This document shows positions 4,693-52,191 of a DNA stretch of 64,000 nt, in pieces. A program made the translations under genes and the position numbers. Every line of letters begins with the position of its first letter. Positions within the stretch are counted from its first letter, which is position 1. The notes under the pieces are model-generated. The model searched no databases, was not told where the DNA came from, and saw nothing but the letters and a program-made list of their open reading frames with translations. The DNA is from a virus: positions 64,001 to 128,000 of the IMG/VR virus record IMGVR_UViG_3300035670_000022; one strand, written 5' to 3'.

Positions 4693-4737
4693 AGGTAGAT
4701 ACCTGTTGATTGCTTTTACTCTTCTCTGTTTAAGTCG

Positions 4738-5226
4738 TTACCTGGTCAAATAGTCGGGGAGTTTATAGGGAGTCTTTCTAGGTTTACTGTATGCTGTGCG
4801 ACACAGCATATCAGCAAGCAGATTGCACTTTCTGGGTATCCAATACATCTCTGGGTTAATCTTTTGAGCTGTAAGGATACTGAGTCCAGTTTTTGCAATT
4901 GACGATAGGAAAGCGGTACGCTGACATTTCGTCACGGAGCTGCCCCGTATGTGTCTAAATAGCACTTGGGAGTCTCCGTAAAATCGGATGATAGACAACT
5001 CGGGGAGTTGTTTTAGTTGGGAGATGACTGTATCTAGGGCTAAGATAAATGCCATCTGTTCTGCCTCGCCAGAGCGCTGGACGGAGAGGTGCTCCCTTCT
5101 TAATAAGAAGGGAGACTTATCTTTCAGGTACAGAACACAGGATGCTGTTGCTCTTTTGTAATCTGGAAGTGATGATCCGTCGAACTTGACGTACAGAACG
5201 GGCGTCTCGACGTCGTTTAACTGCAC
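4738..5226 (-). CDS. rnhA: Ribonuclease HI-like protein
   Basis: FDGS, EAE, GDSQ and WIPRxxNxxAD catalytic pattern. Confidence 0.8.
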   Translation of the reverse strand: MQLNDVETPVLYVKFDGSSLPDYKRATASCVLYLKDKSPFLLRREHLSVQRSGEAEQMAFILALDTVISQLKQLPELSIIRFYGDSQVLFRHIRGSSVTKCQRTAFLSSIAKTGLSILTAQKINPEMYWIPRKCNLLADMLCRTAYSKPRKTPYKLPDYLTR

Positions 5227-5795
5227 GGGGATTCACTAGGGGTAGGTGGTTTCTGAGTAAGGGGAGTAGATGCTACAGGAACAGAGTCCTGCACAGCGAT
5301 AGGTACATAATTTAGACGACATAGCGTCGCATTAGACAATCGCCAGATCTTACGACTATTCTCCCAGTTAGGCGGCGCAGAGCGCATATGTAAACCATCT
5401 ACCTTCCGGTATTTAGGCGTTAACTCCAGGTTATTTACAAGAAACTCGAGTTCCACCTGACTATCGAAATTCACTACTAAACTACCTATTTGGGTAATTA
5501 ATTGTAGAACCTTGCTGTCCGGCAGCTTTGGATAACTCATTGTCGAACCATCTTCAAGACGGCACCCACAGATATACTCCGCTAGAAGAGAGTTATATGT
5601 AGTCCCGTCATCGTCTACCTCAATGCAGTCAAGCACCCGCTCCGGCGTTTCTAGGTCAGTAAAGTGTGTTAACAACACCCGTAACTGAAGGGGTTGTACA
5701 TCTTGACCTAAACTGTGACAGAGCCCGGCTTTAAGTCGAGCTGATTTCACAACAGAGATTTCTGTTACGGTGCCTGTATAGATAAACAGAGACAT
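5217..5795 (-). CDS. Hypothetical protein
   Basis: 192-aa ORF downstream of two promoter motifs, overlapping the RNase H start. Confidence 0.7.
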   Translation of the reverse strand: MSLFIYTGTVTEISVVKSARLKAGLCHSLGQDVQPLQLRVLLTHFTDLETPERVLDCIEVDDDGTTYNSLLAEYICGCRLEDGSTMSYPKLPDSKVLQLITQIGSLVVNFDSQVELEFLVNNLELTPKYRKVDGLHMRSAPPNWENSRKIWRLSNATLCRLNYVPIAVQDSVPVASTPLTQKPPTPSESPCS

Positions 5796-6153
5796 AGTAT
5801 CTCAAGGCGGTGTCGCCCTGTATAGTTTTTCTTTTGTCTTTTACTCTTCTCTGTTTGACTAGACACCCTAGATATCCCCTAACCACCCGTTCAGCGTACT
5901 TTTCTCTGTTTTTAAAAAAGGCTAATAAAAAGCCCTCTTATTTTGAGGGCTAACTTGAACGGGTCTTTATCTGCGTGTTAAAATTAACATACACTTCTAG
6001 AAATCTAATATGTGAAAAGTTGTCTATTGACAGTAGACAACTTCTGTACAGAATTATAGCATCGAGTAAAGAGACAAAGCAGTGAAGCTCCTCAGTAATA
6101 GGGGAGCTTCTTGTTTGGGAAAGGAAGAGTCTCTATTACGTAACTCAAAAGAT

Positions 6154-6170
6154 TTCTGAACCGTTCAGAA
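6154..6170. repeat. 17-bp palindrome, copy 2
   Basis: Exact sequence, intergenic. Confidence 0.85.
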
Positions 6171-6378
6171 TTTTACTTGCTTTGTTGGTTTTGTGTATAC
6201 TCTATTTAGACGTAGCAACTGCTTTGTCGAAGTCTCCCAAATGTCAAGGTTATGACCTACGGGCCCGCTGTCGAATTCATCGGAGACTGGAACAAAGAGT
6301 AGGCGCTGAGTCTAGCCTAGATTCTGTAACACTAAAGATTTCCGTCGCACTGGTTGAGAAAGCGATTAGAGCTAAGTG

Positions 6379-6561
6379 TTAAAGAAAGTAAGCAACCCAG
6401 TCGATACCCTCTAAATACAGCAAATGCTGAAGACCGTTTAAGAAACGGTCTAAGAAAGCGACCAACCAATTAGGGTTGAGTCGGTTTTGTTGTATCTCAT
6501 CCTCTATATCTTTTAAGAGGACGAGGTAATCTATCGTGTTTCCATTGTTGTTTGGTTTCAT
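6379..6561 (-). CDS. Small hypothetical protein
   Basis: ORF coupled to the upstream small genes. Confidence 0.4.
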   Translation of the reverse strand: MKPNNNGNTIDYLVLLKDIEDEIQQNRLNPNWLVAFLDRFLNGLQHLLYLEGIDWVAYFL

Positions 6562-6757
6562 ATAGAGCGGCGATACAAATATCGTCGTAGGGTTCAGGAA
6601 CGTCTCCGAAGAGAGCCCGGTTCCCTAAATTGATTTTGAAGTCAAAGACATCGTCACTGACGATGTCTTTTAGCATAGCTTTTTGCACTTTATGCGGATG
6701 GTTTGCTTGAGTACGCAAACACATCCCGCTGTGGTATTTGCGGATAGTTCTAGCCAT
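6497..6757 (-). CDS. Small basic hypothetical protein
   Basis: Probable start MARTIRKY with GAGG RBS. Confidence 0.6.
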   Translation of the reverse strand: MARTIRKYHSGMCLRTQANHPHKVQKAMLKDIVSDDVFDFKINLGNRALFGDVPEPYDDICIAALYETKQQWKHDRLPRPLKRYRG

Positions 6758-6968
6758 GTTGTAATACCTCGTTGATTTCGTCTTGATGTTGAAGCAGGAG
6801 GGCATGCTCCTTATTACCTTTACCAGTATCCATGCCTGTCTGCCGTGGGTTACGGCAAGACCAGCAGTGACACTTCTTCCTGTTTTTGCGGAAGAATTTT
6901 TGTTGTTCGGGGGTTAACCACCAAATCTGTTTAACTTTACGGTCATCAACTACTTTACGGTGCCACAT
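6750..6968 (-). CDS. Small basic protein with CxCxxC-xNPR motif
   Basis: AAGGAGG RBS; promoter motif at 6994-7007. Confidence 0.7.
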   Translation of the reverse strand: MWHRKVVDDRKVKQIWWLTPEQQKFFRKNRKKCHCWSCRNPRQTGMDTGKGNKEHALLLQHQDEINEVLQHG

Positions 6969-7049
6969 AAGACCTCCTTAGCTTGATGTCTTGTATTCTT
7001 CTCTGTTGTAGCAAAAAACAGCTTGGGGCAATCCAAGCTGTTTGGTTTC

Positions 7050-7283
7050 TTAACGGTAAATAAGATCTTCCCGTTTAGGGAGTTGATCAAGGAGCGTCGC
7101 AGCTCCTATGTAGGCGTCTAGGGCGCCGAATGTGTAAGATAACTCATGTTCACTTACATTTGGGAGACCCATTACAAAAGTGTAGGCTTGGAAGTAACTC
7201 AAGCCGTAGGTGTCTCGTAAGAACTCTTCTGCCGCATCTTCTGATGTGGCTAGCAGCGTTTTGAAAGTAGTGTAGTTATCCAT
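7050..7283 (-). CDS. Hypothetical protein
   Basis: AAGGAGG RBS; followed by a terminator hairpin. Confidence 0.75.
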   Translation of the reverse strand: MDNYTTFKTLLATSEDAAEEFLRDTYGLSYFQAYTFVMGLPNVSEHELSYTFGALDAYIGAATLLDQLPKREDLIYR

Positions 7284-7284
7284 G

Positions 7285-7407
7285 TTAGACCTCCTTTAGT
7301 CTTTTGATTAACTGCTTGGTTTTAGCCTTAACGGCTTTGAACTTGGCAGGAGCAAGGCGCTCCCGCTTCTTCTTGGCACCATCACGGTGCCAGTGTTTAA
7401 CAATCAT
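7285..7407 (-). CDS. 40-aa highly basic peptide (MIVKHWHRDGAKKKRERLAPAKFKAVKAKTKQLIKRLKEV)
   Basis: ATGA-coupled to the upstream ORF, GAGG RBS, ends 1 nt before the next start. Confidence 0.6.
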   Translation of the reverse strand: MIVKHWHRDGAKKKRERLAPAKFKAVKAKTKQLIKRLKEV

Positions 7408-7523
7408 AAGACCTCGTCGGTGTAGCCATTTTTCATGGCGTGGATTAGCACCGTTAAAGTAGCGATGCCGCTACCGAAAATGAATCCAAGTGTCATTCCA
7501 AGTGTGAGTAGAAAAATAGTCAT
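7404..7523 (-). CDS. 39-aa single-TM peptide (MTIFLLTLGMTLGFIFGSGIATLTVLIHAMKNGYTDEVL)
   Basis: AGGAG RBS; hydrophobic helix. Confidence 0.6.
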   Translation of the reverse strand: MTIFLLTLGMTLGFIFGSGIATLTVLIHAMKNGYTDEVL

Positions 7524-7559
7524 TATGATACTCCTAGTTAGAGTTAGCTAAACAGTTTT

Positions 7560-8737
7560 CGAGATGCTCCCACACAGCTAGGAGCTGTGCTTTTTGTTGG
7601 GCAATTTCGAATGCATCCTCGTACGATGTACGAGGCGCCGCAGCTAGAAGCTGCAAATATTCGAATAGTGTTATGTTCTCCGGCAGTGTATGCATGGAGA
7701 CCTCCTATATAATGATGGACAATACCCCCAGGTGGACACGATCCACAATTCCAGCCTACCTATGCGGCACTGGGGATCAACTTCGACTTCCTCACGGGTC
7801 TAGCCTTGTACAGTCGTCTAGATATACATTCGGGAGATATCAGCCTATCTACTGCTACCAGTAGCCAACACACAACGTTTTCCCTAATCCCCCGTAGAGG
7901 ATTGTGGGTATCGATCCCACGCCGTTGTGTGGATATATAACTTCTATCCGAAGATATGGCGGCTGGATACCCAGCTTGTGACCAGTCTTTACACGTAGGA
8001 AGGGCGACGGCCCTATAAAGTAGTTGTGGAAATGCGCCGTACAGGTACTGCCCCTGTCTACGCCACCTTATGAGGGTGGAGCCTCCCTTCTCGGCCAACG
8101 GCGCGGGTGTCCGGCTTAGTGTGTACAGCACTTGCCGGGCGTGTGTGACCTATAGAGCCTGTAATCCAACCAGTCACGTTCTCGTTGGCAGACCGCTATT
8201 CCCTTCCTCTACAAACTACTCAGAATAGCCAGTGTAGTTTGCCCCTTAACCCCAGGGCGGGTATACCTCTTAGATGACGAGTCTAAGAGGGATTCTAGCA
8301 GTTCGCTCAATTGAACGTTCACTATCGAGACTCCTTAGTGTGTTAGTGCCTCGATAGCTAGCTAGGAACTACTTATATTTCTGCCCGAAGGGCACGGATC
8401 AACACACTACCGATCTTTCAGTCACGAGGGCGACGGCCCCATTATAAAGATGTGGAGGGGTTTGATACCCCCAAGGATTCTGCAGTTGGTCAGACTACAT
8501 ATCCAACCACAGCTTTGTCTGTTCAAAGTGTCTTGCTCGCCATATCAGGTCCGCACACTCTTTTAGGTGTATATAGCCTTGCGAGCATCACCTAAACTAC
8601 AATCTTGACTGACCAAGCCCTAAGATTCTGACAGATTTGACTGTATCGCGTTACTTCCGCGCACACATCAACGTATCCATTTTAGAAGGCATTATCCCCC
8701 GAATACTAGAGGGGCCCATATGAGAGTTATCTCTCAT
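7560..8737 (-). ncRNA. Candidate large (~1.2 kb) structured non-coding RNA
   Basis: No credible ORF with an RBS; more than 20 hairpins and multibranch stems; cUUCGg loop on the minus strand; duplicated GGGCCGTCGCCCT hairpin; phage promoter motif immediately upstream (8739-8752). Confidence 0.6.
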
Positions 8738-8800
8738 GTACTCTTCTCTGTTGTAGAAAAAGAAAGAGTATCGGTTAAGACGACACTCTTCTTTGACTAA

Positions 8801-9187
8801 TTAAGCGAAAGATTCAGTTACAACTTTGACTTCAATAAGCCGTTCCCAGCCTGCGAATTCAAAGTAGAACTCACCTTCTCGGTTGACCCGATTGTTTTTA
8901 GCAAAGATAACCGGGCGGTCTCCCGCAATGCCTAAGACTTGTTGTTGTAAGTTGATAGGGCAGACAACTGCCAAGATATCAAACTCAGCTGCTATAGCTT
9001 TGAATGATTCGATTTGTACAGTATTAGGTGCCTCACCATGAGGCGTAATTTCAGCCTCAAACTGAACGTGTACATTAGGCATGGTGCCGTTGACTTGTAC
9101 AACTTCGATAGCGCCTAGTTTGGCTTTTAAAGCAGTAAACTGCTCATAGCTCATTTCATGGCGACTGAACCACATTACTTTGGTCAT
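8801..9187 (-). CDS. Small Rossmann-like protein, possibly Csx16-like
   Basis: WFSRH N-terminus and DILAVVCPINL segment; AAGGAG RBS; own promoter motif. Confidence 0.55.
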   Translation of the reverse strand: MTKVMWFSRHEMSYEQFTALKAKLGAIEVVQVNGTMPNVHVQFEAEITPHGEAPNTVQIESFKAIAAEFDILAVVCPINLQQQVLGIAGDRPVIFAKNNRVNREGEFYFEFAGWERLIEVKVVTESFA

Positions 9188-9268
9188 AAGATATCTCCTT
9201 AATTTCGTGTACTCTTCTCTGTTGCTTTAAAAAACACTAGCAGGTTATTAACCTGCTAGCGTTTAACA

Positions 9269-9439
9269 CTATCGGAACTTCTTGGTGGCTGCTATATAAG
9301 CAGCCACGTTCCGGCGATGCTCTTCACGAGCCTCCGCCATTTGGCGGATAAACTCCTCCGTCTCCCGACGGACAGCTTCTTTATGTGCTTCAATAGATGC
9401 GGCAAATTCTTCCGGATGATAGACCACAGATGTAGACAT
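9269..9439 (-). CDS. 56-aa helical hypothetical protein (MSTSVVYHPEEFAASIEAHKK...)
   Basis: AGGAG RBS; flanked by terminators. Confidence 0.6.
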   Translation of the reverse strand: MSTSVVYHPEEFAASIEAHKEAVRRETEEFIRQMAEAREEHRRNVAAYIAATKKFR

Positions 9440-9500
9440 AGTTTAGACTCCTAATTTGAATATGAATACGAAAAGCCCCCGAAGGCGGGGGCAGTAGCAA

Positions 9501-10271
9501 TTAGCGGCGACGACGACCGCTGGTGACAACTTTAGTCGCGCCACGGTTTACCGCAGGTAAGTCTACTTGAGACTTCCGTGCGGTCGGTGCGCCAGCTTTA
9601 ACGGCGGCTTGTTTGGCAACACCTACGGTACTGCCAATCAATTTACAGTCAGCCCATGCGACATTGGATAAGCCGACGGCGGGTTTTTTGGTCTGCGGAT
9701 TTAACCGCAATACCATGTCAAAGGTGACAATCCCGTCCGGGTTGGCTGCTACCACCCATAACCGCTTCGAAGAATGTTCGGTTGTGTACATGCACCCACG
9801 ACCGAAGTCTTCTTCATACTCTTCCCATAGTTCCGCATAGCGGATCAGGGATTCGAAGTCAGATTGGCTGATAACACCATTGTCAACAGACTCTTGACTG
9901 AATTCGATGGGCAAAGACCGCAGTCCTTTAATCCACTGTTGCCCTTTCGTCAGGGTTTTGCCTGTGGTGGCAGGCTGCATAGACCCATCAGGGTTCATAA
10001 CCCCTGACAGTCGTACTTTGACGGACACTTTTTCGGTGTTTTCGTCGTAGAAGGGGTCTTCTAAGACGATGCGAATCAAGTCGCATGATCCGTCTTCTGG
10101 TGCAAACTGCGAACGAGACATCAGACTTGTGTCAACAAAGAACTGATCGTACGCATCGCGCGCCTGCTCGATAAAACACTCGGGAATCCCCGCCAGTACT
10201 GTTTGCAGATCAGGATCTGCATATAGACCAGCGATGAACATTTCGGTGTTGGCGGCTTTGGCTTCTAACAT
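9501..10271 (-). CDS. Hypothetical protein with basic C-terminal tail
   Basis: AGGAG RBS; three promoter motifs upstream. Confidence 0.8.
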   Translation of the reverse strand: MLEAKAANTEMFIAGLYADPDLQTVLAGIPECFIEQARDAYDQFFVDTSLMSRSQFAPEDGSCDLIRIVLEDPFYDENTEKVSVKVRLSGVMNPDGSMQPATTGKTLTKGQQWIKGLRSLPIEFSQESVDNGVISQSDFESLIRYAELWEEYEEDFGRGCMYTTEHSSKRLWVVAANPDGIVTFDMVLRLNPQTKKPAVGLSNVAWADCKLIGSTVGVAKQAAVKAGAPTARKSQVDLPAVNRGATKVVTSGRRRR

Positions 10272-10535
10272 AGGTATAATCTCCTAATTGTTTATTCATG
10301 CACTCTTCTCTGTTGTTAGACAGGGTAGAGCAGGGCTATTTAGAACCCTAAAGGTTCTTTTTTATTCCCGTTTACTTCTCTCTGTTGTTCGTCTAGGTTG
10401 TTCTAGGTTGTTCTAGGCTTAAGCAGACACGCTCAGGTTGTCTGTCTTTGGGTTTTTAAGGAACGTGGCAACGTACTCCTCTCTGTAAAAAAAGGGGCAT
10501 GCGCCGCTGCATATGCAGGGGCGCATGCCAGCGTC

Positions 10536-11240
10536 CTATTTAGGACGCCGTCCGCTTCCGACCACTTTCGTGGTGGGAGCGGACTTTGCCCCTTTAGGGG
10601 CACCGCCCCCGAAGAGGGCGGAAACGTCCTCTACTGCAACGCAGTCGAGGGCGGCGTGCTCGGAGGGCTCTGCCCCTCCCGAGCCGCAAAAGACTGCATC
10701 ACTGCAGTCGAGGGCTGAGATATACAGCCCGTACTTGCCGCCGGCGGCAAGTTGGAACCGTACGGTTCCTTGCACCCACACAGGGTGCTCCTTTTGCCGA
10801 ACGGCAAAAGACTTCGAGTCTGCTTTAGCCTCGAAGTGATATTTGACCAGTTGGTCAAATATCTCCTCTGCCCCTTCTGGGGCAGAGTCGAACGCCACCT
10901 TGGCGTTCAACGTGAACCATTGGGGTTTACCCCCAAGGTTCGCGTCCTTCTGCGGAAGGACGGATTTTGGGTCGACAGACCCATAATCCACAGCCTTTCC
11001 GTGAAGGCTGATGCACGTAAGTGCAAACGACAGCACGTAAGTGCCGTCGTCGTACAGCGACGCGTCGGTAACGGTAAGCCCGAAGGGCTTCCGTTGACCG
11101 AAGAGATCGGGACCGATCTCTATGCAACTGTGTCCCGTTAGGAGACACAGTTGCATAGGCAGTCCGGAGGACTGCAGGTAGGCAGCGGCTGCTGCTTTGT
11201 CTTCGCCGAAGGTGGAGATAACGGAAGTGACGGTAGTCAT
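10536..11240 (-). CDS. Hypothetical protein with basic C-terminal tail
   Basis: Two promoter motifs upstream; terminator downstream. Confidence 0.8.
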   Translation of the reverse strand: MTTVTSVISTFGEDKAAAAAYLQSSGLPMQLCLLTGHSCIEIGPDLFGQRKPFGLTVTDASLYDDGTYVLSFALTCISLHGKAVDYGSVDPKSVLPQKDANLGGKPQWFTLNAKVAFDSAPEGAEEIFDQLVKYHFEAKADSKSFAVRQKEHPVWVQGTVRFQLAAGGKYGLYISALDCSDAVFCGSGGAEPSEHAALDCVAVEDVSALFGGGAPKGAKSAPTTKVVGSGRRPK

Positions 11241-11452
11241 GACGTTGACGGCTCGTAGAGCCGTAAGAAAGTGCTTGCACTTCTCTCTGTTTCTCCGGAC
11301 CCGAAGGGTCTGGAGACTCTCTCGAAGAGAGAGTTAAGAGTGCTTGCACTCTTCTCTGTTCCGCTCGTTAGAGCGGCATAGAAGACTTAGGGACCCGCGC
11401 GGAATAGGTAATGAGTTAGCTAGTTAGCGGGGCTAACTAGCAGAGGGTGATA

Positions 11453-24001: not shown

Positions 24002-24113
24002 AATAAATGCGCCCCTAATATGGCGCTTTAAGGTTTTTATTTAGACACTTCACTTTTGAGAGGCTGTGAGAACCTACAACGACTAATACGCCTCGTTGCT
24101 GGCAAGACAGCTT

Positions 24114-24347
24114 CTAGCCAAAGTACCGGGGGCTAGCCGTAGCTTTGCCCTCGGTGATGTTGGCAATGACGCTAAAAACAAAGTTGGGGGCCAGTTTAGC
24201 GGCCAAGGAGACCTCGGCCAAGATCGAGGCATAGGTATGCCCCGTAACTTGAGCGATTGCTCGCTCTACTGAGATGGCTACGCCGTAGGCGACGTAGAGT
24301 ACCGCCAAGACGGCGGTGTAGATGAACAGAATGTTGAGAATGTCCAT
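24114..24347 (-). CDS. Small membrane protein (paralog of 25256-25561)
   Basis: GGAG RBS before MDILNIL; TM helix; C-terminal RYF. Confidence 0.65.
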   Translation of the reverse strand: MDILNILFIYTAVLAVLYVAYGVAISVERAIAQVTGHTYASILAEVSLAAKLAPNFVFSVIANITEGKATASPRYFG

Positions 24348-24515
24348 AGTTGTTTCTCCAACTAGAGGTTTACATGTAGTTTTGAGTGGTTCTACAAACC
24401 AATCGGGACTAATAGCCCACCCGACTGGGCACAACAAAAGGGGACCCGCCTAAGCGAGACCCCTAGATAGACATAGCAAGCTATAATCTACTTATTCAAT
24501 TTAGAGGTAATAAGT

Positions 24516-25136: not shown

Positions 25137-25255
25137 AGAGTATTTGTTGCGGCTGTTACCTGGTTGGGTATCCAAGTCGGTCCAGAAGAACCCAGCCAAT
25201 ATGTTTAGCAGCTTCACCCACTGCATTGTGAGTACCTCGCGGTACAGGGGCAACA

Positions 25256-25561
25256 TTATTGAAAGTACCGCATGCTGCGTGCGGTAGGAGAAGGATTCAC
25301 CTTCTCCATCACATCCCACGCCCAGGTGGGGTTGCATACCCCCCAGACCCAGACGTGATTGATTCCGCCAGTGATGGCGGTGTATGCGCCTTTTAGGAGG
25401 GCAAGGGCCACTTCGTCTATGTGGTGCCCGGTGGACTCCCGCACGGAGCGGGCGACGCCGTAGCAAATAGCGTCGATGAAGTACAAAGCGATCAGCCCGA
25501 GGCAGACGCCCCAGGCTGTTAACAGAATCGTATCGAGAACAAACATCGTGAAATCAGACAT
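25256..25561 (-). CDS. Small membrane protein
   Basis: TM N-terminus; TGH and RYF motifs shared with 24114-24347; preceded by a hairpin cassette. Confidence 0.65.
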   Translation of the reverse strand: MSDFTMFVLDTILLTAWGVCLGLIALYFIDAICYGVARSVRESTGHHIDEVALALLKGAYTAITGGINHVWVWGVCNPTWAWDVMEKVNPSPTARSMRYFQ

Positions 25562-35092: not shown

Positions 35093-35093
35093 C

Positions 35094-35630
35094 TTAAGCC
35101 TCGATGATTAGCTTGAAAGTTTGTTCAACGTCTTCTTGCACTTCTATAGGAGAGAAGTTCTCGTAATAGAGTGGAATCGCATTTATGTCTGATGGTAGAT
35201 AAGAAGCGTAACAACGACTCTTTATGCTTTCTATATCAACTACCGAGTGAATGATAAACACTCCTAACGAGCGAAATGCCGGTTCTGGTATCTGGTTGTG
35301 AGGCAGTTTTACTTCTAAGTAAAGTTTGCTTATTTGCTCTCGTCTTATATCAAGTATGGTCGGGTCATCCATCAAAAGAATATGTTTGCCGTCAATAACA
35401 ACAGTGTCTTGGGTAGCACTTGACTTTTGAATTGCTGCTTTTCTGATCGGTATAGGAAAATAGATAAATATCTCGTTTAAGTTAAAGGTAAAAAGATCCG
35501 GCGCGGGGGGAACTGCTTCTATGCTCCAGGGGCTGGTCTGTCCTAGTCCTAAGAGTAGCGGAAAGCAAGGGTCCAAAAATCTCTGGAGCCGTCTGTAATT
35601 AATTTCCTTAGGATAGCCTTTGGTTGTCAT
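35094..35630 (-). CDS. Putative baseplate wedge-like protein
   Basis: GLGQTSPW...PP, LYLEV, FRSLGVF pattern typical of phage baseplate proteins. Confidence 0.5.
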   Translation of the reverse strand: MTTKGYPKEINYRRLQRFLDPCFPLLLGLGQTSPWSIEAVPPAPDLFTFNLNEIFIYFPIPIRKAAIQKSSATQDTVVIDGKHILLMDDPTILDIRREQISKLYLEVKLPHNQIPEPAFRSLGVFIIHSVVDIESIKSRCYASYLPSDINAIPLYYENFSPIEVQEDVEQTFKLIIEA

Positions 35631-44600: not shown

Positions 44601-47599
44601 CAAGAGCCTTCTTCGATTTCTTCTTGTTTACGCTTTTCTAGAGCAAACACAGTGTCGAGAAGTTGTTGCCCATAGTCACTACTTGAGTCTATTCCCATTG
44701 CATCTAGGCGGCGCGAGTAGTCTGCGTAGGTAAACATAGATAATCCCTGAATGGAGTTAAACAGCTGCATGGAATACGGAGTAGACACGCCGCCTTTGAC
44801 TTGAACTAAGCCACCTAGCATTTCGTCTGGGTTTAGAGTTGTCGGGCGGGCACTCTCCGAGGCACCGCGCAGTAAAGGTAATCCATCTTTGTCCGTTAGA
44901 TACTCTGTGTGTTCTACGGGCATCTCGCTTAGCAAGAAGCCTCTTGTGTAAATAAAGTCATCCTTCTCGCTGAAGTGAATATCTTCTACTTCTGGGGTTA
45001 ACCCGTATAACGGGCGCTTCCATGCAAGTTGTCCTTGGCTGTAACTTAACTCATGGGATTGCGGATAGATCTCAATCAATCTGGTATACAGCTCACTCTT
45101 GCGCTGCTGCATTGTTCTCTTGAAGAAGCTACTTGCTACTGCATTAAACGAGATGACGTTTCCTACTTCTTGACTGCGTTTTGTTATGGCTCCTACGTTT
45201 TTACTTAGCACTAGCTCTTTGTATGTGCTTAACTTTTGTTGGGACTCAGCTTCGGTAAATCCAGCGGATCTTAGTGCTAACAATGTTGCGCTGTCGCCTT
45301 GCTCTAATAACTTCTTCAGAGAATGCAGCATTATTCTCGTATTTTCTTCATACGCCATGCCCTGATTCATTGTGTAGACAATGCCGCCAAGTACCTGCAG
45401 AGCGTCTAGAGATACACTTTCTCCTGACTGTATGACTTTAGGGCCGCTGCTGCGATTATACGTATCGAACATGGCTGATTCGACTGCAACTGTCCTTGTG
45501 GATTTGTTCAACCACTCCATACCAGTAATGACGCGGTTACCTTTGTTGATATAAACTACGGGCACTTCATTAACGACTTGCTGTCCCGTCATCGGGTCAT
45601 ATCTCGACTCTTGCGTGCTGCCTATGGTCACACTAAACCGGAATACGTTTTTCAGGACGATGTCTAACCCGGTTGCTTCTCCTTGCATGTTGTATCGTTT
45701 GGAGAATCTAAATGGGTGTGATCTATCTTGTTGTCTACTTTCTTTACCCCCCAAAGCGGTGAGCATCTCTACGGCTGCTGAGACCTGTTTACTGTCTCCT
45801 TTACTTTCTACATAGAGTCCCCTGTTTGACATCTTTGACATCAAACCACTTCGGTAGTAACTCAGCGTCTCTTCGTTGTTGAGATTTAGGTCTTGGATAT
45901 CTCGTTCACCTAGGAAGATACCTGCTTCAATGTTTCTTGCATAGGAAGTAAACGATAGGTTAGCAGACGAGACTTCTAGCATCTCCAGTTTGTCTAACTC
46001 TTTACTCAGGACCGCAAAGCCTTTAGAGTGTCTGAGTTGTGTTGGAGCAATGGAGGCAGAGCTGCTTATAATTTCTTTGATTCTTGCTTTTGTCTTACTT
46101 GAGTCTTCCTCTCCAAACAGATCAAATACTTGTTTGTCGTCGTTCAGTCGGTCGAAGATGGAATATATACCCTCCCCTTCGTTGCGGCTGTTCTGTGTTG
46201 TGACTAACGTTAAACGTCCTTGTTGACTCAGACTTTCTATAACCTTGAAGAAACTTTTTTTATAGGCTAGAAAAGCAGACGACCCTTCTTGGTCTGTTAC
46301 TCCGTGTTTAGCCCCGAATAGAGTCGACTCTAAATATTGTACGGATAGAATTACTTGAGACTCTGACGGTGACTTACTGAGTCTTCTCAGATGTCTTAAA
46401 CGTGTTTCGTGAACGTCTCTATTTAGTTTGACGAATTGACTTGTCTCTTCTAGAGTGCTTTCAATCAACGACTTTCTAAATGCCTGTTGAGTTAAGCGTC
46501 TAGCCCCAAGAGACGTTAAGTCTTTACCCGCAGTGCTAAACATTGCATCTGTGGCGGCGCCTATTTCTCTTAACACAGACAGCATCTTGTCTTTGGCTTC
46601 TTTATTGCTATCGGCAACCATGTCCATACTCAAGAAGAGAGCCTCTTCAAGAGAGTCTCGGTTACGCAGCGTATCCGTTCTGTTTTGGCTTCCTATGGTA
46701 CCGGCAACGATATTCTTATTATCGTCATAGTAGTAACCTAACTTGGCGTGGAAGGCAGGGGTTATTAATTGACCTTCATTTCTCAGAGTCACTTTATTGG
46801 CGTTAACATTGGTGCCTTCAAAAGCCGAGAGGCTAACTTCGTTACCTCCTAACACGCTTAGCATTCTTTTTGTAGCGTTTTGACTCTGTTCTTCTCTATC
46901 CTTAACGACTATCGGACGAACACCTTGGGTCAATATGTCTGTTTTGACCTCTGGCCCTCGACTCATTAATCCACCAATATAGGAAGATTCTTGAAGTTGA
47001 TAGACAGACTCTCTTAGGTTTAGTCCCTTGTGCTCTTCTTGAAAGGCGTTCCAGTCTCTGTCGATAGGTCTTTGAACCAGACCGCGTGGTGGTTTATAGA
47101 GAGTGATATCCGACTGTTCTTGATTTGATCCGATAATCGAACCTGTTTTACCTATGGTTCTGTTGTAGATACCTGTTCCAGTGACTCTTACTGAATTTCC
47201 ATACCGGCTATAAATACTCTGATTGATGACGGATAGTTGACTTTGCCTGGCAGACAGACTAGAACCACCCTGAGCGCCGTATACAGCGTCTGCTGCTTCT
47301 CCTATATATTGCTTAGCAGAATTGTAGGGTTGCAGCCCTCCTGATTCGAAAGAGTTGAACTGATCTCGGATTGGACTGTTATGGTCCATGTTCCAAGCGA
47401 TGTGACTTTGCATAGAGGCCTGCACGCCTCTTGCCCTACCCGGGTCTCCACCCTCATCGTCTTGGGTGATGTATTGATTTGCTTCTTCGTTTAAGTTCTC
47501 TAGGTCTTCACCGGCACTACTATCCTCGTCCTCTGCATTACCAGCAGAAGCCTCCAACTCTTGTTCTGGGTCGTTATAATTTGTGTCCTCTTCTCCCAC
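35630..47599 (-). CDS. 3989-aa putative virion protein: tandem PLD domains, double-psi-barrel RNA polymerase core and helical tape-measure-like C-terminus
   Basis: HAK...D...GSQN (aa 284) and HSK...SSAN (aa 524); NRQGAP (aa 2693); LGDYDGD (D at aa 2753); Ala/Gln/Glu-rich helical C-terminus with hydrophobic stretches; structural gene context. Confidence 0.65.
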   Translation of the reverse strand: MGEEDTNYNDPEQELEASAGNAEDEDSSAGEDLENLNEEANQYITQDDEGGDPGRARGVQASMQSHIAWNMDHNSPIRDQFNSFESGGLQPYNSAKQYIGEAADAVYGAQGGSSLSARQSQLSVINQSIYSRYGNSVRVTGTGIYNRTIGKTGSIIGSNQEQSDITLYKPPRGLVQRPIDRDWNAFQEEHKGLNLRESVYQLQESSYIGGLMSRGPEVKTDILTQGVRPIVVKDREEQSQNATKRMLSVLGGNEVSLSAFEGTNVNANKVTLRNEGQLITPAFHAKLGYYYDDNKNIVAGTIGSQNRTDTLRNRDSLEEALFLSMDMVADSNKEAKDKMLSVLREIGAATDAMFSTAGKDLTSLGARRLTQQAFRKSLIESTLEETSQFVKLNRDVHETRLRHLRRLSKSPSESQVILSVQYLESTLFGAKHGVTDQEGSSAFLAYKKSFFKVIESLSQQGRLTLVTTQNSRNEGEGIYSIFDRLNDDKQVFDLFGEEDSSKTKARIKEIISSSASIAPTQLRHSKGFAVLSKELDKLEMLEVSSANLSFTSYARNIEAGIFLGERDIQDLNLNNEETLSYYRSGLMSKMSNRGLYVESKGDSKQVSAAVEMLTALGGKESRQQDRSHPFRFSKRYNMQGEATGLDIVLKNVFRFSVTIGSTQESRYDPMTGQQVVNEVPVVYINKGNRVITGMEWLNKSTRTVAVESAMFDTYNRSSGPKVIQSGESVSLDALQVLGGIVYTMNQGMAYEENTRIMLHSLKKLLEQGDSATLLALRSAGFTEAESQQKLSTYKELVLSKNVGAITKRSQEVGNVISFNAVASSFFKRTMQQRKSELYTRLIEIYPQSHELSYSQGQLAWKRPLYGLTPEVEDIHFSEKDDFIYTRGFLLSEMPVEHTEYLTDKDGLPLLRGASESARPTTLNPDEMLGGLVQVKGGVSTPYSMQLFNSIQGLSMFTYADYSRRLDAMGIDSSSDYGQQLLDTVFALEKRKQEEIEEGSWDRVKQKAVMLYTPYDKTEQNIQRLKNLKSVRPFLPANLDFASFLRSFGAEDESGFMQKTQEAAKAGIDIEGSDLVGGVIPFGLPSAQFELLKKYQMENPDADIVKYARSIAIDTDEVTQGFIEAPKLVMVNMGINEMSDYSYLNTEYANSNENAYLKTYRSQTALSTKEMNMTPAQFNALIREKLQVGTIFVARDVKLQDAPHLSETNRQLENKVLTFIKLTSDIGEMQYSIDKDFSMENLKSADIKKALKEMRRLSQEGHKSVSFAEAVDFREGGFVLKKGVYQMKSSTDGWLKKIGSLNDGENAFYIDGINTYTSLGEKSRIQPFRVKAPAYSGREMNAISYLYKTPTSSEQDLRSNMVTYNLEMVNIADLKTGQRTAEAKGPFKGTNRDYFLEIGAVYGSEVGYENLPTEITGKEIFAAITMGQMKGFVFKAGLGFLREGEKSNTWKMITDTDQQTAGYKIAEALSLMMLGDTTSGATETNKISALLKGAYERGAISNRRQAQSALKLIVEGTASAKNLAQKNQSDKLQRDFAPTIAVYEGIMSLVDEGEVESGKTPEQALIDTIGAALKAGKEGDAARAKLAQKTENLFKTTRDQYGKQMPDGGYYYDETKSRSASVMAFFLNAAKDVLTDINPERRLLGKAVTEIAYNTDGFFGVYLKNEEVARKVDREISTVFNKIILGIENEKGQLNPMQKAVHERKISSLEEMKKQSIAYMSDTAIDFKDKSIEGLMNAAGVENDLFMSKAYTPGIRKNLTEIFMNYGGLDAESLLLYRDQEYGKEANVYRKAVRQQTLALGIEMPSIERIWKLQDKSSRTDTEASELETLQNELQNTLTMMRGLGQFGLRMALPFDMTINKITVPTGMEDTTALEGHYANALTDKQLQLYTYSGDDKEKARSLQQTMVILGSMLQEGLGTTLDQSDVSEMYSIRRTNAILMGYKNYTDLENESESGIDAQTAGDRARRNRMRRAIKQEVETNVFSLSFSQSYGDFTARSRDNVFPRYVSSRAKDIAPAEEVFFQFIRSDAEGYESALQQMEWSRRVSSDRTNLDRTERARAITKDYLRRLKNSETIVGGQVEDLLSGITDRALSQLSSLQEVEAAMFSSSLIENDPGVTEADATIENWADKLSPDTTKRAIAILKSRKIAVPDNATKEDIAKIVKEQKGTIRSLPVEDQLELASLGFTEMALVLGDGTGSLSEVELTRLSADTKRTAFVQLLLREKFKEVLKTQTGLTASQTLSETSTLINNLTSIEERVSAYIKDAPEIQERLLYNLIKNEVDTKLKQSADIDPGKEYIQGKQKLREYARQFLEAGLGTTEEQSRARSIIDSVDKTYSVTIPVLQIQPSPTDEGTYKAQIMPETEIEGWMLGLDVLERMSLVFPGHTHEALRAQYGLADSLARANDTGLFEEMAQAVMERREVNLSAEQLDVYNTLVNSAEIAKEQTLHLSKNKDTFRQTMADRLSLTGSSFIAMNSFLVGQSEVALGSRIDTLLKENSGSGLRTLMDTIVDRLIDSHQKAVSSETVRIDNRIAELSAATDPESSAEISRLREDRQRLVNDLILDPNSQNRIVQSTIKYAQLTANILQNLSDVIQGPDAKTFSYEDLLERVKEPVFQKEQQAAQAAEEAANAKKAAGAVESENAAKPREEPRSRYVRGQDLKEALISDIGGEPTDDGYKQLESVVFRSMVTANRQGAPSGTFHTFGNAHQQISPEEMAKRAKLFGSLQSPDLATSNTGMFISSLGFQFTQLGDYDGDSFQAAFTKMADSTREVVDAFDKVKKAEAEFYASEENQDAPHSIIRMSAVGAQTRSLNKLTQTINDYVEKLEVLAELRQEVENRGVEKVRNYITDFMALPAEFMEGLSYGVGAITDEDIPSLIKQSRDTQANFYGNQNKVQSSLGRALATVSDITLNQDIGITFREGAADDKLQQAYTETLNKVGKDFIEYSTDAELRSFNQASIKEKSQKLIEFSALMSQRLAALGDLGKVSSKVAGSLLNTSAFANIQAIVGSTGTGLLGKTYNTVVPLLGMAVSDLASMRAMKEAADGTDDKMGTAFVEALQRQQLVLRQRLQNAETAKEQTAAQTQLDIFNDLLQKYQDKQTVPYKIAEAETQKRLNATFGLLLDVQQFLRDAALKPKKGGSVALEAAEFEYTYETQSGERKTLVGLDTIMNTVDEVERSKVMERFIGTRAGAVLAQDYGFEFKEDGKVVVSDNKLDTSELRVFAALEMVNEYLSGKKTATEMLKESTFAGFFRQRKEQMIEQDPDRPIPTDEFIVQTTLADSLAKFRSEFIYNAVLEAADYKPMLQKFAERLQDGYSEENLRTRTLAYEETLRGIYEQQMPDGASQLTKDVEADINSRTQSWRAEQERVRDVIAAAATRADSNANTTLGEEVFRSLIEYQTQREAQIYVGTDTEAGLFDQLISLNRAVQGLQSGQYATPGTAQQYEIAQTAILYNISRGKLEGTTFNESIFRLATEVQSVGGSAEAVGALLAVGGGTSLPGLMEFIQQQAQERAGGDTSRADELVRQSLVTLGEILTTQVETGATQRQSVAEIIAEKSVVSASSSKIQQELAALNDLELEARQRIQEGASDEEASETLDVIKRYREERQKRLESVQSNPQEAVNRLNEDFDPVAQALNDVQEQIGKNVAESIKAQHMQKKSQNITKVQEEAYQKQVRSNTLSLLAVPLLFSVMSGDVPITDRVAELARNMIESALTLSQQQGSVTQRILSGEGSGTVLAETLRPPNRQVENPVTISPDEPLTRDTVRTERQRRTAARTAQTIEPDVDEKPTQTSYLEKEQEDAERNTGRANYLLRVARAREFMFSAEGKPAGLAQSVAFEALNTAGAYASSQFAQNTRLLRDDSVLGRGALEVMGGVVGMALANVVTKRPITGTDFTYDAAFDLTVQAVSNVKDNVIAASRRALAEAINGEDIDITDGYTGESLEAILAEGDFMFDDDNTSLSAVERVMITEGMLEEEESLPIEQGED

Positions 47600-47747
47600 T
47601 TCAACCCTCTATTACGATTAGTTTTGTTTTTATCTCTAGTGCCCCGTGTAAGCTAGGGTGTAGATAGTACCTTATAAACCCAGACTAGCCGAGTTCTTTA
47701 TTGCTGTCCTTAAGGTCTGTCTCTACTTTAATTCTGACCTATCTAAT

Positions 47748-48518
47748 ATGAAAAACGCTCGCGTTCAAACCATCCCTAAAGAGAAACTTAGCGGCGGATA
47801 TGCTGTTAACATCTATCGCCCTTTGTATAAGGACTATAGCCAAGCAATGAAGCTATACCCGGCTGAGTCTCGGGAGAATCCTAACGGACCCGGCTACACC
47901 TTTGAGGAATTTCTCTGTGCTTTATGCATCAGAGATGCTAATGGTGCTGAAGTTGACAATGCACCTAAAGACGCGATCGAGCGCTTTGCTCAAGTTCAGC
48001 TCAAAGATAAACAGTATATTAGCCGTACTTTTATTACTGCTTTCTTGATGACTCAAGACTTACAGGATGAAGCTGAAGCGCTGGCTGATACGCTAATGGA
48101 TATCGATCCCTATTCGTTAACCTATACGATTACCAAAGACCAGCTACCCTGGGGGAGTGCAGATTTCACTTTTCACCGACCCAGCTCTTCTGTACAAATC
48201 TCTGTAACCAAGAACTACACTTCGCCTCGCGTCAACGGCTGTGCATGGGAAGAGATGTTTCTTGTCTCTTGTATGCAGCAAATTAACGGCGAGGCCCTTC
48301 CGGAGACAGCTAATCCTATTAGCCACTTCTATGACCTGGAGGTGCTGGATGTGCAGTTTGTTGCCGCTACGTTTATTAAGATGTTCAGCATGGGCATGAA
48401 CGAGCGTAAAGACGCAATGGATTTGGGAAAGTCTTGGCGAACCAAAATTTCGCAGCCGTCTCCCGACTCCAAACCCAAAAGTGCTTCACTAAAGGCACCG
48501 ACTCCTTCTACAACCTAG
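47748..48518 (+). CDS. Putative tail assembly chaperone (gpG-like)
   Basis: In-frame G GGA AAG slippery site at 48425-48431; two internally repeated halves (FEEFLCALCI / WEEMFLVSCM). Confidence 0.6.
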   Translation: MKNARVQTIPKEKLSGGYAVNIYRPLYKDYSQAMKLYPAESRENPNGPGYTFEEFLCALCIRDANGAEVDNAPKDAIERFAQVQLKDKQYISRTFITAFLMTQDLQDEAEALADTLMDIDPYSLTYTITKDQLPWGSADFTFHRPSSSVQISVTKNYTSPRVNGCAWEEMFLVSCMQQINGEALPETANPISHFYDLEVLDVQFVAATFIKMFSMGMNERKDAMDLGKSWRTKISQPSPDSKPKSASLKAPTPSTT

Positions 48519-48973: not shown

Positions 48974-48982
48974 GAAATCTAA

Positions 48983-50446: not shown

Positions 50447-50841
50447 GGCAATTCGATTCCTAGCATCTTTTCTATTCTTTCTAGGCGGACGGCAAGTCCT
50501 TTAATTGTCTCAGTGTATGGAGCCGGGTTGTCTAACAGCCAGGCTTCTATTAGTTTTATCTGGTTTATTTTCATCTTTTGTGCTCTAACGGCTTTCTGCC
50601 GCCAGAACTGGTATTCTTCGTCTTCTTTCTGCGTAAAGTTTCCATAGGCTGCTCTCTCAATATCTTTCTCGATAAACTGGGAGTCGATGTTCTGGATATC
50701 TAGCTCTAAACTCTTTATGGCTAAATAGGCCTGTTCATGGGTCTCAGGAAAGTCTATAGAGTCAAAATAGTAAGTAGGCAGCGTATGGAAAGTCTCTCTG
50801 TACGGTGACCAACGATGATCGCGGGGAGGCTGGTTAGACAT
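50443..50841 (-). CDS. Hypothetical coiled-coil protein
   Basis: ORF in an operon with dut. Confidence 0.65.
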   Translation of the reverse strand: MSNQPPRDHRWSPYRETFHTLPTYYFDSIDFPETHEQAYLAIKSLELDIQNIDSQFIEKDIERAAYGNFTQKEDEEYQFWRQKAVRAQKMKINQIKLIEAWLLDNPAPYTETIKGLAVRLERIEKMLGIELP

Positions 50842-50860
50842 TTAAAATCTAAATGTGATT

Positions 50861-51514
50861 CTAAACACCAGTATGCCCAAAGCCCCCCTTTCGGATAGTC
50901 TCATCCAGACACTCTTCTAGGACCTCTTCTGGTGTCCAGGAGCTTTGGGCAATTAAGATTTCGTAGGCACCTTGGGCAATGCGAGCACCGTGTCCAAAGA
51001 AGTGTGTAGATTTCCCCTGATTTTCTAAAATCACTCCTACATCATCTCGGTAGTAGCAATCGATTAACCCAGGCGAATTGGTTACAAAGATACCGTGCTT
51101 AGCCGCTAATCCACTACGAGAACTAATTCTGTAGCAGGCAGTAAATGGATCTGGCAGTTCTGGAAGTGCAATCTTAAATCCCGCTTTGATTACCCGTCGC
51201 TCTCCAGGAGGAAGTAAAACAAAAGCGTAGCCATCTTCTACTTTCAATGCAGATAGTAACGAGTTGTCTTTTAATGGCTTGCCGTTGACGTATATCTCCT
51301 CTTTGGGAGTGAACAGCTGCAGCTTCTTGAGTTCGTCTTTAAGTTCTGCTTCTGTTTTGTGCTGGGGAATCCAGGCCTTAATGTCTGCAGCGGCATCTTT
51401 TGCATGGGCACACTGGGGTAGCCACTCCGCACTCTCCGCTGTAAATCTTGGCATCAACAAGTCTTTAAGCTCTTGTAGAATACCTTGTTTCTGTATATTC
51501 GTGAAACTTAGCAC
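50861..51514 (-). CDS. dut: Trimeric dUTPase with an insertion after motif 1
   Basis: SRSGLAAKHG, PGLIDCYYR, RIAQ, RKGGFGHTG. Confidence 0.92.
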   Translation of the reverse strand: MLSFTNIQKQGILQELKDLLMPRFTAESAEWLPQCAHAKDAAADIKAWIPQHKTEAELKDELKKLQLFTPKEEIYVNGKPLKDNSLLSALKVEDGYAFVLLPPGERRVIKAGFKIALPELPDPFTACYRISSRSGLAAKHGIFVTNSPGLIDCYYRDDVGVILENQGKSTHFFGHGARIAQGAYEILIAQSSWTPEEVLEECLDETIRKGGFGHTGV

Positions 51515-52114
51515 TTAGTATCTCCGATGTTTTTGATTTAGAATAGCTTTCACTGTGTGTAGGTGTAGACACACACCATTTCTTTCATACTCTGTACAGG
51601 TACAGGTAAAAGCGCTGGTGGCGACGGGTATACCTTTATAGGGATAAACCTCAAAGTGACTGCCTTTAATCTCTCGAAAAGTATAACCCTGTTTTAAACT
51701 CTCTATAGCAATAAGGTTTTGATAGTCTCTCTCCTGGGTACTCTTGTCGACTGGAATTGACAAAGAGGTAGTCCCTAGTTGATAAGTTACTACCCCGCCT
51801 TTGAATTGGCAGCCGCTTATTTTCTTATCGGCTATTTCATCTAGGACATACTCCCACACCCACTGCTCTAAAGTTAGAGACTCCTTTTTCCCTCTAATAC
51901 TCTGCACGGTTTTGTGATTGTCGTATGTGTGTAGAGCTTTGCATATTAAAGCATCTGGCATTTGTTTAATAGAGAGTCGAACCACTTTATCAGTCTTGTC
52001 TTTAGGCTCTACGTATAGACAATCTTCTTTGTTGCTATATTCTGGGGTTAGGTACTTTGTAAGTAATCTGGACAGAGTGTCTGCCTTTGCTAGAAGGTAA
52101 GGGTAGCTGAGCAT
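51515..52114 (-). CDS. SWIM zinc-finger protein
   Basis: CTCx8CxH near the C-terminus; promoter motif at 52140-52153. Confidence 0.7.
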   Translation of the reverse strand: MLSYPYLLAKADTLSRLLTKYLTPEYSNKEDCLYVEPKDKTDKVVRLSIKQMPDALICKALHTYDNHKTVQSIRGKKESLTLEQWVWEYVLDEIADKKISGCQFKGGVVTYQLGTTSLSIPVDKSTQERDYQNLIAIESLKQGYTFREIKGSHFEVYPYKGIPVATSAFTCTCTEYERNGVCLHLHTVKAILNQKHRRY

Positions 52115-52191
52115 ATATTTAAAGTTTTACTTTTCTTTGTACTCTTCTCTGTTTTAGTTGACGCACTTAATTGAATTAAAAAGAAGGGCTA

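Follow-up and report, generated by a model that had tools for sequence, protein, structure and literature searches.

Gene content of the contig and the window

Here, a short and oriented sequence motif, AACAGAGAAGAGTR, is analyzed in the virus contig IMGVR_UViG_3300035670_000022 of the IMG/VR database. The contig comprises 155,913 base pairs (bp) at an estimated completeness of 88%, and the window under study corresponds to its bases 64001–128000 (64,000 nucleotides, nt). Unless assigned to the contig or to a relative, all positions given below are those of the window. In the comparison with the relatives G001, G002, and G007 this phage contig is labeled G000. Near-identical DNA is contained in three subsurface metagenome runs, and for the positions 4400–11500 no RNA run containing this DNA was listed.

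The contig encodes a tail sheath, a portal, a major head protein and long tail fibres, and a large block on the minus strand carries the genes for helicases, a DNA polymerase, a ribonucleotide reductase and a thymidylate synthase. Three giant open reading frames (ORFs) are present. The first one encodes 4182 amino acids (aa; 11453–24001, minus strand) and the second one 3989 aa (35630–47599, minus strand). The third one, of at least 3525 aa (contig 145337–155913, plus strand), exceeds the right contig end and has homologues of 6999 aa in G001 and 4148 aa in G002. A complete phage sigma-70-family factor displaying the regions 1.2, 2, 3, and 4 is encoded outside the window (contig 47153–48154, plus strand); it is closest to the cyanobacterial RpoD/group-2 type (TIGR02997, 258 bits) and is kept in G002 and G007. 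As judged by the major capsid protein, the closest phages in culture belong to the Microcystis Ma-LMM01 group, together with the Microcoleus phage My-WqHQDG, with an identity of just 28%. A megablast search of the positions 4000–12000 against the GenBank phages gave no match, and scans of the window with Rfam and for tRNAs found nothing.

An oriented motif in non-coding DNA

The motif AACAGAGAAGAGTR is the most over-represented word of the 155.9-kilobase (kb) contig, and its sub-words top the k-mer tables at k = 9, 10, and 12. The genome-wide check that had been proposed with the original prediction of a strand-biased phage promoter yielded 19 exact copies in the whole contig, 18 on the minus strand and one on the plus strand, compared to 0.003 expected from the base composition. 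The non-coding DNA, defined as everything outside ORFs of at least 60 aa, makes up 5.7% of the contig and harbors 14 of these 19 copies (binomial p = 4e-14).

Within the window, nine exact copies are located on the minus strand (4717, 5842, 8739, 9210, 10301, 11347, 22096, 30327, and 52140), together with three copies containing one mismatch (5897, 6994, and 13492) and four containing two (10373, 10474, 11278, and 52020). On the plus strand just two matches with two mismatches are present (3046 and 13845). Matches with three mismatches occur on both strands, and when all matches with 0–3 mismatches are pooled, 35 are observed vs. 16.4 ± 4.1 expected. The 15 copies with up to three mismatches and in one orientation that had been claimed originally correspond to the number of good copies, but those with three mismatches are not countable, as they are found on both strands. 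Likewise, the claimed strict strand bias holds within the window, but genome-wide one exact copy lies on the plus strand (contig 7954).

The conserved block is longer than the 14-bp core and represents a single contiguous stretch of about 20 bp, AAAACAGAGAAGAGTAMAAG. The information content is high from position −2, where two A's precede the core, up to position +17 (AAAACAGAGAAGAGTA, then A or C, then AAG), and is followed by a weak A-richness. No second conserved element is present within 45 nt upstream or 40 nt downstream of the block, no TANNNT occurs at a fixed position, and the motif itself contains no inverted repeat. As had been stated before, the motif is therefore not a sigma-70-type promoter, since one contiguous block without a second element is found instead of two hexamers. 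Furthermore, sigma-70-like sites are not enriched; in the small-gene region following the 4182-aa gene they occur at chance level (9 vs. 8.9).

Two other words came up in the search. The copies of the second candidate motif, CTTTACCTACG, are too few for an interpretation. For the late genes, the candidate element GTAAGCTAGG has only two copies, and k-mer enrichment gave no strong late-gene motif.

Surroundings of the motif copies and the genes served

The intergenic copies typically lie 22–50 nt before a minus-strand start codon and point in the same direction as the gene. In the small-gene region (4.4–11.4 kb) five copies, at 5897, 6994, 8739, 9210, and 10474, directly follow a terminator consisting of a hairpin and a T-run, with a gap of 2–8 nt between terminator and motif. 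Terminator-like sites are enriched around the copies of this region (23 vs. 7.3 in shuffled sequence).

The individual copies of the window described in the following are all located on the minus strand. An exact copy (4717–4730) lies 24 nt upstream of the ATG at 4692, which starts an 86-aa gene. The ATG at 5795 is preceded by a tandem pair, of which the proximal copy (5842–5855) is exact and lies 46 nt upstream of the start codon. The distal one (5897–5910) carries one mismatch and has a hairpin and T-run terminator (5931–5951) about 20 nt upstream; a further T-run precedes it by 3 nt. The terminator at 7016–7043 is directly followed by a copy with one mismatch (6994–7007), located 25 nt upstream of the ATG at 6968, which has an AGGAGG ribosome-binding site. 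The exact copy at 9210–9223 directly follows a terminator with a 15-bp stem (about 9232–9264) and a T-run, and lies 22 nt upstream of the ATG at 9187, here with the ribosome-binding site AAGGAG. A stack of three copies precedes the ATG at 10271: the proximal one (10301–10314), an exact copy of the G variant, lies 29 nt upstream of it, and the middle (10373–10386) and distal (10474–10487) ones carry two mismatches each. The distal copy directly follows a strong GC-rich terminator (about 10494–10537, −28.9 kcal/mol) with a T6 run. Around 90 nt past the stop codon of the 4182-aa gene, another exact copy of the G variant (11347–11360) is followed by two UUCG-type hairpins and then by a copy with two mismatches (11278–11291), which lies 37 nt upstream of the ATG at 11240.

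The exact copy at 8739–8752 directly follows the terminator at 8763–8791. A perfect hairpin is present at +2, and then about 1.4 kb contain short ORFs only, apart from a 123-aa ORF starting with GTG (7760–8131). Since this copy heads a region of mostly short ORFs, it weighs against the motif being a translation signal. The stretch itself, approximately at 6300–8900 and mainly at 7244–8760 after this copy, has 80–95% identical contigs in unrelated metagenomes (marine, oyster, and others), with many break points, and a permissive Rfam scan of the positions 7000–9000 gave no match. It represents a widespread conserved non-coding element and possibly a large structured RNA transcribed from the motif.

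Two further copies are located in sense orientation inside the 4182-aa ORF. One of them (13492–13505, one mismatch) lies in an acidic linker and is a candidate for an internal promoter; 89 nt further downstream, an in-frame ATG starts the final 649 codons, which encode a Dda/Pif1-like helicase module. The other one (22096–22109, exact) is located where conservation is poor, and an in-frame GTG that follows after 56 nt opens 3528 codons. Among the structural genes, an exact copy (52140–52153) 25 nt upstream of the ATG at 52114 heads an isolated three-gene minus-strand operon consisting of a 199-aa gene, a dUTPase gene and a 132-aa gene. The label "SWIM-dut" previously given to this operon is correct for the dUTPase, but neither Pfam nor PHROGs confirmed "SWIM" for the 199-aa gene. 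The match with two mismatches inside the 199-aa ORF (52020–52033) is doubtful and may be due to chance. The seven start distances listed above and the stacking of copies before 5795, 10271, and 11240 had been described correctly in the original prediction.

The visible ribosome-binding sites before 6968, 9187, and 10271 begin about 10 nt after the motif. A transcript containing them therefore starts within or just after the block. By the same distance, a role of the motif as an upstream activator box at −30 was ruled out.

Across the whole contig, motif copies are found in front of the replication block (contig 37656), several operons inside this block, small genes and the dUTPase operon, and no structural gene is preceded by one. 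The strand bias therefore reflects the gene class and not the strand as such. Two exact copies stand back to back, 27 nt apart, before an operon (contig 7913–7926, minus; contig 7954–7967, plus). They would be either divergent promoters or a 14-bp hairpin in an RNA read from upstream. Exact minus-strand copies are also present in antisense orientation within plus-strand genes, namely a tail-fibre gene (contig 39924) and a gene of the structural block (contig 139812). In G002, antisense copies of its own motif are located at 81923 and 88194; one of these lies in the homologue of the 881-aa gene (contig 138914–141559), at a different codon position. These antisense copies may drive antisense transcripts against late genes.

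Counterparts of the motif in related viruses

The exact 18-mer of the motif is absent from the other IMG/VR contigs, so that no close relative with an identical motif is present there. Three distant syntenic relatives with protein identities of 25–65% were compared: G001 (97.6 kb, incomplete; portal identity 65%), G002 (189.8 kb; 53%) and G007 (196.9 kb; 49%). AACAGAGAAGAGTA was not found in these three; each of them displays its own oriented and purine-rich motif in the same architecture as in this phage. For G001 this is AAACAAAGGGTAAA, which, counted as AAACAAAGGNTAA, occurs four times on the plus strand (gene direction) and not on the minus strand, vs. 0 expected. The G002 motif AACAAAGNAMA is found 14 times on the gene (plus) strand and once on the minus strand, vs. 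3.0 expected, and lies 21–77 nt before ORFs. For G007, AAGAAAAAAGAATA occurs 41 times on the gene (plus) strand and four times on the minus strand with up to two mismatches. Its core words are the most enriched ones in upstream regions (p = 9e-21), and downstream of the giant polymerase gene, in the small-gene region, they again cluster behind T-runs. Overall, the motif copies of the relatives are located 20–80 nt upstream of ORFs, partly at orthologous genes, and they lie on the plus strand, where the same genes are also found in G001, G002, and G007. In G006–G008, which are more distant, the pattern AAACARAGNNNNTA shows no enrichment.

The 5′ core AAACARAG is common to G000, G001, and G002. 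At the dUTPase operon the elements of G000 and G001 align without gaps and are identical at 13 of 17 bases. A profile comparison placed the motifs of G000 and G002 in the same register, with 0.64 at zero offset and 0.47 for the next best one. Three orthologous sites carry the motif: the dUTPase operon in G000, G001, and G002, a 496-aa gene (contig 25070; G002 43332; G007 155235) and a 373-aa gene (contig 27345; G002 41314). Furthermore, the giant polymerase genes of G000, G002, and G007 each have, close to their 5′ end, an in-frame start with a motif copy a short distance upstream. Since the intergenic DNA is otherwise unalignable, the retention of the element, its orientation and its placement represents the strongest available evidence of function.

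A two-barrel RNA polymerase predicted in the 4182-aa protein

Pfam and PHROGs identified in the 4182-aa protein only a NADAR domain, an AlkB-like 2-oxoglutarate-Fe(II) oxygenase, DUF4326 and a Dda/Pif1-like helicase, all of which are located in the last quarter. An exhaustive HMMER search with the residues 1500–2650 recovered 50 representative clusters, mostly proteins of 2000–4500 aa. The family alignment displays invariant G, D, D, G, and D residues (consensus GDFDGD), an R.P motif (consensus RAP...GP) and K.R...K, and the GDxDGD positions are invariant in 19 family members. In this phage the metal-binding motif corresponds to the DDDGD codons (residues 2267–2271; 17189–17203, minus strand). 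It lies within a predicted single-chain two-barrel RNA polymerase (RNAP) module, which spans the residues ~1520–2480 (16562–19444, minus strand). The beta-type double-psi beta-barrel (DPBB) region is matched by the N-terminal half of the module and the beta′-type one by its C-terminal half.

An AlphaFold2 model was calculated from the family alignment and reached a predicted local distance difference test score (pLDDT) of 74 overall and of ~90 over the residues 30–830, with a predicted template modeling score (pTM) of 0.73. All 50 matches listed by Foldseek are RNAP chains, nearly all of them second-largest (beta-type) subunits, together with two beta′ chains. In an unfiltered structural search QDE-1 was the top match (Z 11.4, 394 residues aligned across the model), followed by vaccinia Rpo132 (10.0), Pol I A135 (9.6), bacterial and plastid beta subunits, P23-45 gp96 (9.1) and P74 gp62 (9.0). 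Here, the model residues 19–443 match beta/Rpb2-type chains (Z 9–10) and the residues 615–988 match beta′/Rpb1-type chains (Z 7.8–8.8). Based on these fold matches and the invariant GDxDGD, the model therefore indicates that the 4182-aa protein contains a single-chain two-barrel RNAP of the QDE-1/gp96/gp64 kind.

The core of the 4182-aa protein has no tblastn match in 50,697 GenBank phage records, and a PDB sequence search with the 4182-aa and the 3989-aa proteins returned no polymerase. The closer homologues of the giant protein are P0004 and P0005, which are 45–47% identical; a scan of IMG/VR with P0004 and a scan of the Joint Genome Institute (JGI) metagenomes with the family alignment found nothing. 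Elsewhere in the contig, no Pfam beta′ domain was found, and a search for a T7-type RNAP (PF00940), which was run without a positive control, did not find one.

Further repeats and genes

The giant polymerase gene is preceded by repeated units of a second class (24000–29100, minus strand; G002 123130–129100). Each unit consists of a GC-rich terminator with a T-run, which is followed at once by a short hairpin-like element and then by a small gene. In G002 the hairpin-like element reads GTGGGC..9–10 nt..ACCCAC, and the leader GAGCTAATC(C)ATG is common to the units of G000 and G002. These units are a candidate for the earliest promoter class, with an element distinct from the motif.

An array of iterons containing 6–8 direct repeats of ACCAACCAATCGACCAGTG (29226–29340) adjoins an HNH endonuclease gene and heads the block of small genes that precedes the giant gene. 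At the syntenic place G002 carries a different triple repeat, GGAAAAAATGGTGCGCGGGAAAA. The array may serve as a replication origin or as a control region.

A 17-bp palindrome, TTCTGAACCGTTCAGAA, recurs eight to nine times with 0–2 mismatches in intergenic and coding DNA (411–427, 6154–6170, 22613–22629, and 59270–59286; contig 2267, 16587, 25124, and 47127). One copy is located just before the sigma-factor gene and two copies lie 40–55 nt upstream of motif copies. The palindrome may be the operator of a dimeric regulator or the target of a homing or restriction enzyme. Tandem repeats are found as four units of CTCCACTCTCTA in a non-coding gap of 527 nt (2270–2313), five units of GGTAGTAGC (28490–28533) and five units of CTGAAGGCACTGAGT (contig 136658–136730). 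The non-structural blocks also encode a PIN-PhoH fusion protein (422–1795, minus strand) and a small protein-kinase-like protein (27959–28561, minus strand).

Proposed function of the motif

The enrichment, orientation and placement of the motif as well as its counterparts in the relatives make it very probable that it is a promoter. The complete statement, namely that it represents the core promoter of the non-structural gene class and would be read by the two-barrel RNAP of the 4182-aa protein, is given a probability of about 0.45. This is also where the original prediction of a promoter recognized by the 4182-aa enzyme stands: the promoter function is supported and an RNAP fold is present in the model of this protein, but the link between enzyme and motif comes from elimination and from analogy with the phages P23-45, N4, and AR9.

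In this scheme, the motif would direct the small genes of early type, the genes of replication and nucleotide metabolism, the dUTPase operon and one non-coding region, as well as a few internal and antisense transcripts. Transcription would most likely start within the block or a few bases past its 3′ end, since the ribosome-binding sites begin only 10 nt after it. The reader would be sigma-independent and phage-encoded, most likely the two-barrel module of the 4182-aa protein. As motif copies lie inside the gene of this protein, a self-reinforcing expression would be possible.

For the temporal order, a cascade may be proposed, every step of which we infer. Expression of the first genes, together with that of the polymerase gene, would be driven by the terminator and hairpin units upstream of the giant gene. 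The enzyme would then fire the motif promoters, including those in its own gene. The late genes would depend on another system, perhaps the host RNAP together with the phage sigma factor.

Several observations weigh against this assignment. In G002 a motif copy also stands before the giant polymerase gene, so that, if the encoded enzyme were the sole reader, the first enzyme molecules would have to originate from read-through or from the virus particle. In P23-45, phiKZ, and AR9 the long and highly conserved motif belongs to the virion polymerase (PMC10770324, PMC5312081). Of the exact copies, four are antisense or without a gene to serve (contig 7954, 39924, and 139812; window 30327). The last of these, at 30327–30340 on the minus strand, lies between two plus-strand genes and points antisense into the HNH endonuclease gene (29460–30251), toward the iteron array. 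The register between the motifs of G000 and G007 is not unique because both are purine-rich. Moreover, G002 and G007 carry not only the 4182-aa-type polymerase but also the 3989-aa protein, the third giant protein and the sigma factor; since the relatives with the motif thus possess all candidate readers, co-occurrence cannot single out one of them.

Alternative explanations

A promoter could also be read by a polymerase that is delivered with the particle, for which the 3989-aa protein, encoded next to baseplate and tail genes, is the candidate. The motif would then mark the first genes transcribed, and the 4182-aa RNAP would transcribe the late genes from short and weakly conserved promoters, similar to phiKZ and AR9. 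This explanation would fit the assignment of the long motif to the virion enzyme in the phages named above, the motif before the giant polymerase gene of G002 and the internal copies in those of G000 and G007, as well as the lack of a strong late-gene motif in the k-mer enrichment. Within the 3989-aa family, FTQLGDYDGDxFQ and R.GAP are invariant in eight homologues of 25–47% identity, and the gene adjoins a baseplate-wedge-type gene. However, the 3989-aa protein is an unproven polymerase. Neither Pfam, PHROG, nor PDB gave a sequence match, BLASTP found none to the 4182-aa protein, and hhalign aligned the two families over 23 columns around the protein motif only, with a probability of 0.6%. 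The model of its residues 2450–3350 is poor (pLDDT 50, pTM 0.24), mostly helical and without a barrel. The third giant protein, another possible reader, has no Pfam or PHROG match and no conserved DxDxD. Reading by a particle-delivered enzyme is regarded as unlikely.

The host RNAP likewise appears to be an improbable reader. Similar to the action of T4 MotA or the phiEco32 sigma factor, it would be redirected either by the phage-encoded sigma factor or by a DNA-binding activator of the phage. Group-2 sigma factors, to which the cyanobacterial RpoD-like factor of this phage belongs, read bipartite −35/−10 promoters. The motif is one contiguous block without a second element or a TANNNT at a fixed distance, the ribosome-binding sites 10 nt after it leave no room for a downstream −10 element, and sigma-70-like sites are not enriched in the region. 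Nevertheless, the sigma factor is complete and is retained in two relatives, one of which (G002) has a motif copy before the ORF that immediately precedes the sigma gene. For the Ma-LMM01 group, the phages in culture that come closest, the use of host SigA has also been published for all gene classes (PMC5780444). The chance that the motif is no promoter at all is smaller still. In this case, it would act as an RNA-level 5′ element in processing, stability, or translation, or as a strand-specific DNA signal in replication, recombination, or packaging. The four exact copies that are geneless or antisense would then find an explanation, as would the location of nearly all copies on one strand regardless of the local gene direction, the copy facing the iteron array and the inverted pair at contig 7913/7954, which could form a 14-bp RNA hairpin. 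On the other hand, most of the intergenic exact copies lie at leader-length distance from starts on the same strand, and several directly follow terminators, so that upstream transcripts would rarely contain the motif. One copy precedes a non-coding region, the motifs of the relatives follow the orientation of the genes, and a Chi-like or packaging signal would not concentrate in the small non-coding fraction of the contig.

Comparison with known phage transcription systems

The closest parallel to the preferred reading by the 4182-aa RNAP is phage P23-45. It encodes two single-chain two-barrel RNAPs, each with its own motif, the virion RNAP gp96, which is fused to the tape measure protein, and the non-virion RNAP gp64 (Chaban et al., 2024; PMC10770324). 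In both cases a giant phage protein hides a two-barrel RNAP, and the model obtained here matches gp96 and, through P74 gp62, a homologue of gp64. Both systems display private over-represented motifs before early or non-structural genes, with similar motifs in related phages, and in both the promoters were found through this over-representation. In contrast, one P23-45 motif is AT-rich and the other GC-rich, whereas the motif described here is unrelated to them and purine-rich. The RNAP is fused to NADAR, AlkB, and helicase modules instead of the tape measure, and its carrier is a contractile-tailed cyanophage-like virus of at least 156 kb. Furthermore, data from chromatin immunoprecipitation sequencing (ChIP-seq) and cappable-seq exist for P23-45, whereas the pairing of motif and enzyme proposed here is putative.

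For AR9, the early promoters AAATATATATTAT-(6N)-G of the virion RNAP and the late promoters AACA-(6N)-TA/G of the non-virion RNAP, whose last base is the start site, have been described, and internal as well as antisense late promoters occur (PMC5312081). The phiKZ-like jumbo phages, AR9 among them, resemble the present case in sigma-independent recognition, in short contiguous blocks that end at or near the start site and in internal and antisense copies. The outline AACA...TA is also shared superficially with AR9. An AR9-type late promoter was nevertheless rejected, as AACA and TA are separated here by eight bases, AACA-(8N)-TA, none of which varies, so that all 14 positions are fixed. In addition, the AR9 enzymes are multisubunit polymerases, the late one of which reads the template strand of uracil-containing DNA, and no homologue of the AR9 subunits was found here by Pfam. 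The T7-type promoters are alike in being one conserved block of about 20 bp that lies directly upstream of the start and overlaps it, in their many near-identical copies and in the terminator-promoter cassettes, but the polymerase predicted here belongs to the unrelated two-barrel class.

Coliphage N4 uses a cascade of a virion RNAP with hairpin promoters, an RNAPII for the replication genes and the host sigma-70 RNAP for the late genes. An N4-type virion promoter is a DNA hairpin with a 5–7-bp stem and a 3-nt loop upstream of the start. Similarities to N4 are a giant protein of about 4000 aa with a central polymerase module, replication genes with their own promoter class, a possible third stage on the host RNAP and the second class of terminator and hairpin units upstream of the giant gene (24–29 kb; G002 123–129 kb). 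The N4 enzymes, however, are T7-like and not of the two-barrel type, and an N4-type hairpin promoter was rejected for the motif itself, which contains no inverted repeat.

With the Ma-LMM01 group and My-WqHQDG, finally, this virus shares a related capsid; these phages are contractile-tailed cyanophages of 160–180 kb. According to published work, Ma-LMM01 relies exclusively on SigA promoters of its host and has no phage-specific motif (PMC5780444), in contrast to the virus described here.

Implications

Private promoters of phage polymerases are already known. New are the sequence of the motif, a polymerase family that has not been described so far and an outline that is kept across an uncultured clade. 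In its most far-reaching form, which is put forward tentatively and is more doubtful than the promoter assignment itself, the motif would be the cognate promoter of an undescribed family of giant two-barrel RNAPs fused to NADAR, AlkB, and a Dda-like helicase (~50 representative clusters). The internal copies would reinforce the expression of the polymerase and release a helicase isoform. Promoter and polymerase would have co-diverged as a pair (AACAGAGAAGAGTA, AACAAAGNAMA, and AAGAAAAAAGAATA) across an uncultured cyanophage-like clade with contractile tails, whose closest relatives in culture are believed to use host SigA only.

If the proposed assignment is right, the motif would provide the exact template sequence for in vitro testing of an unstudied family of giant fused RNAPs. 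The three naturally diverged promoter-polymerase pairs would give access to sigma-free DNA recognition by two-barrel single-chain enzymes, and the genome of an uncultured virus could be divided into transcription classes without culture. From the internal and antisense copies, three kinds of regulation may be predicted: the polymerase gene would reinforce itself, the helicase would be expressed separately, and late genes would be controlled by antisense transcripts. A cyanophage-like branch would run its own private transcription, in contrast to the Ma-LMM01 group, which has been described as fully dependent on the SigA of its host.

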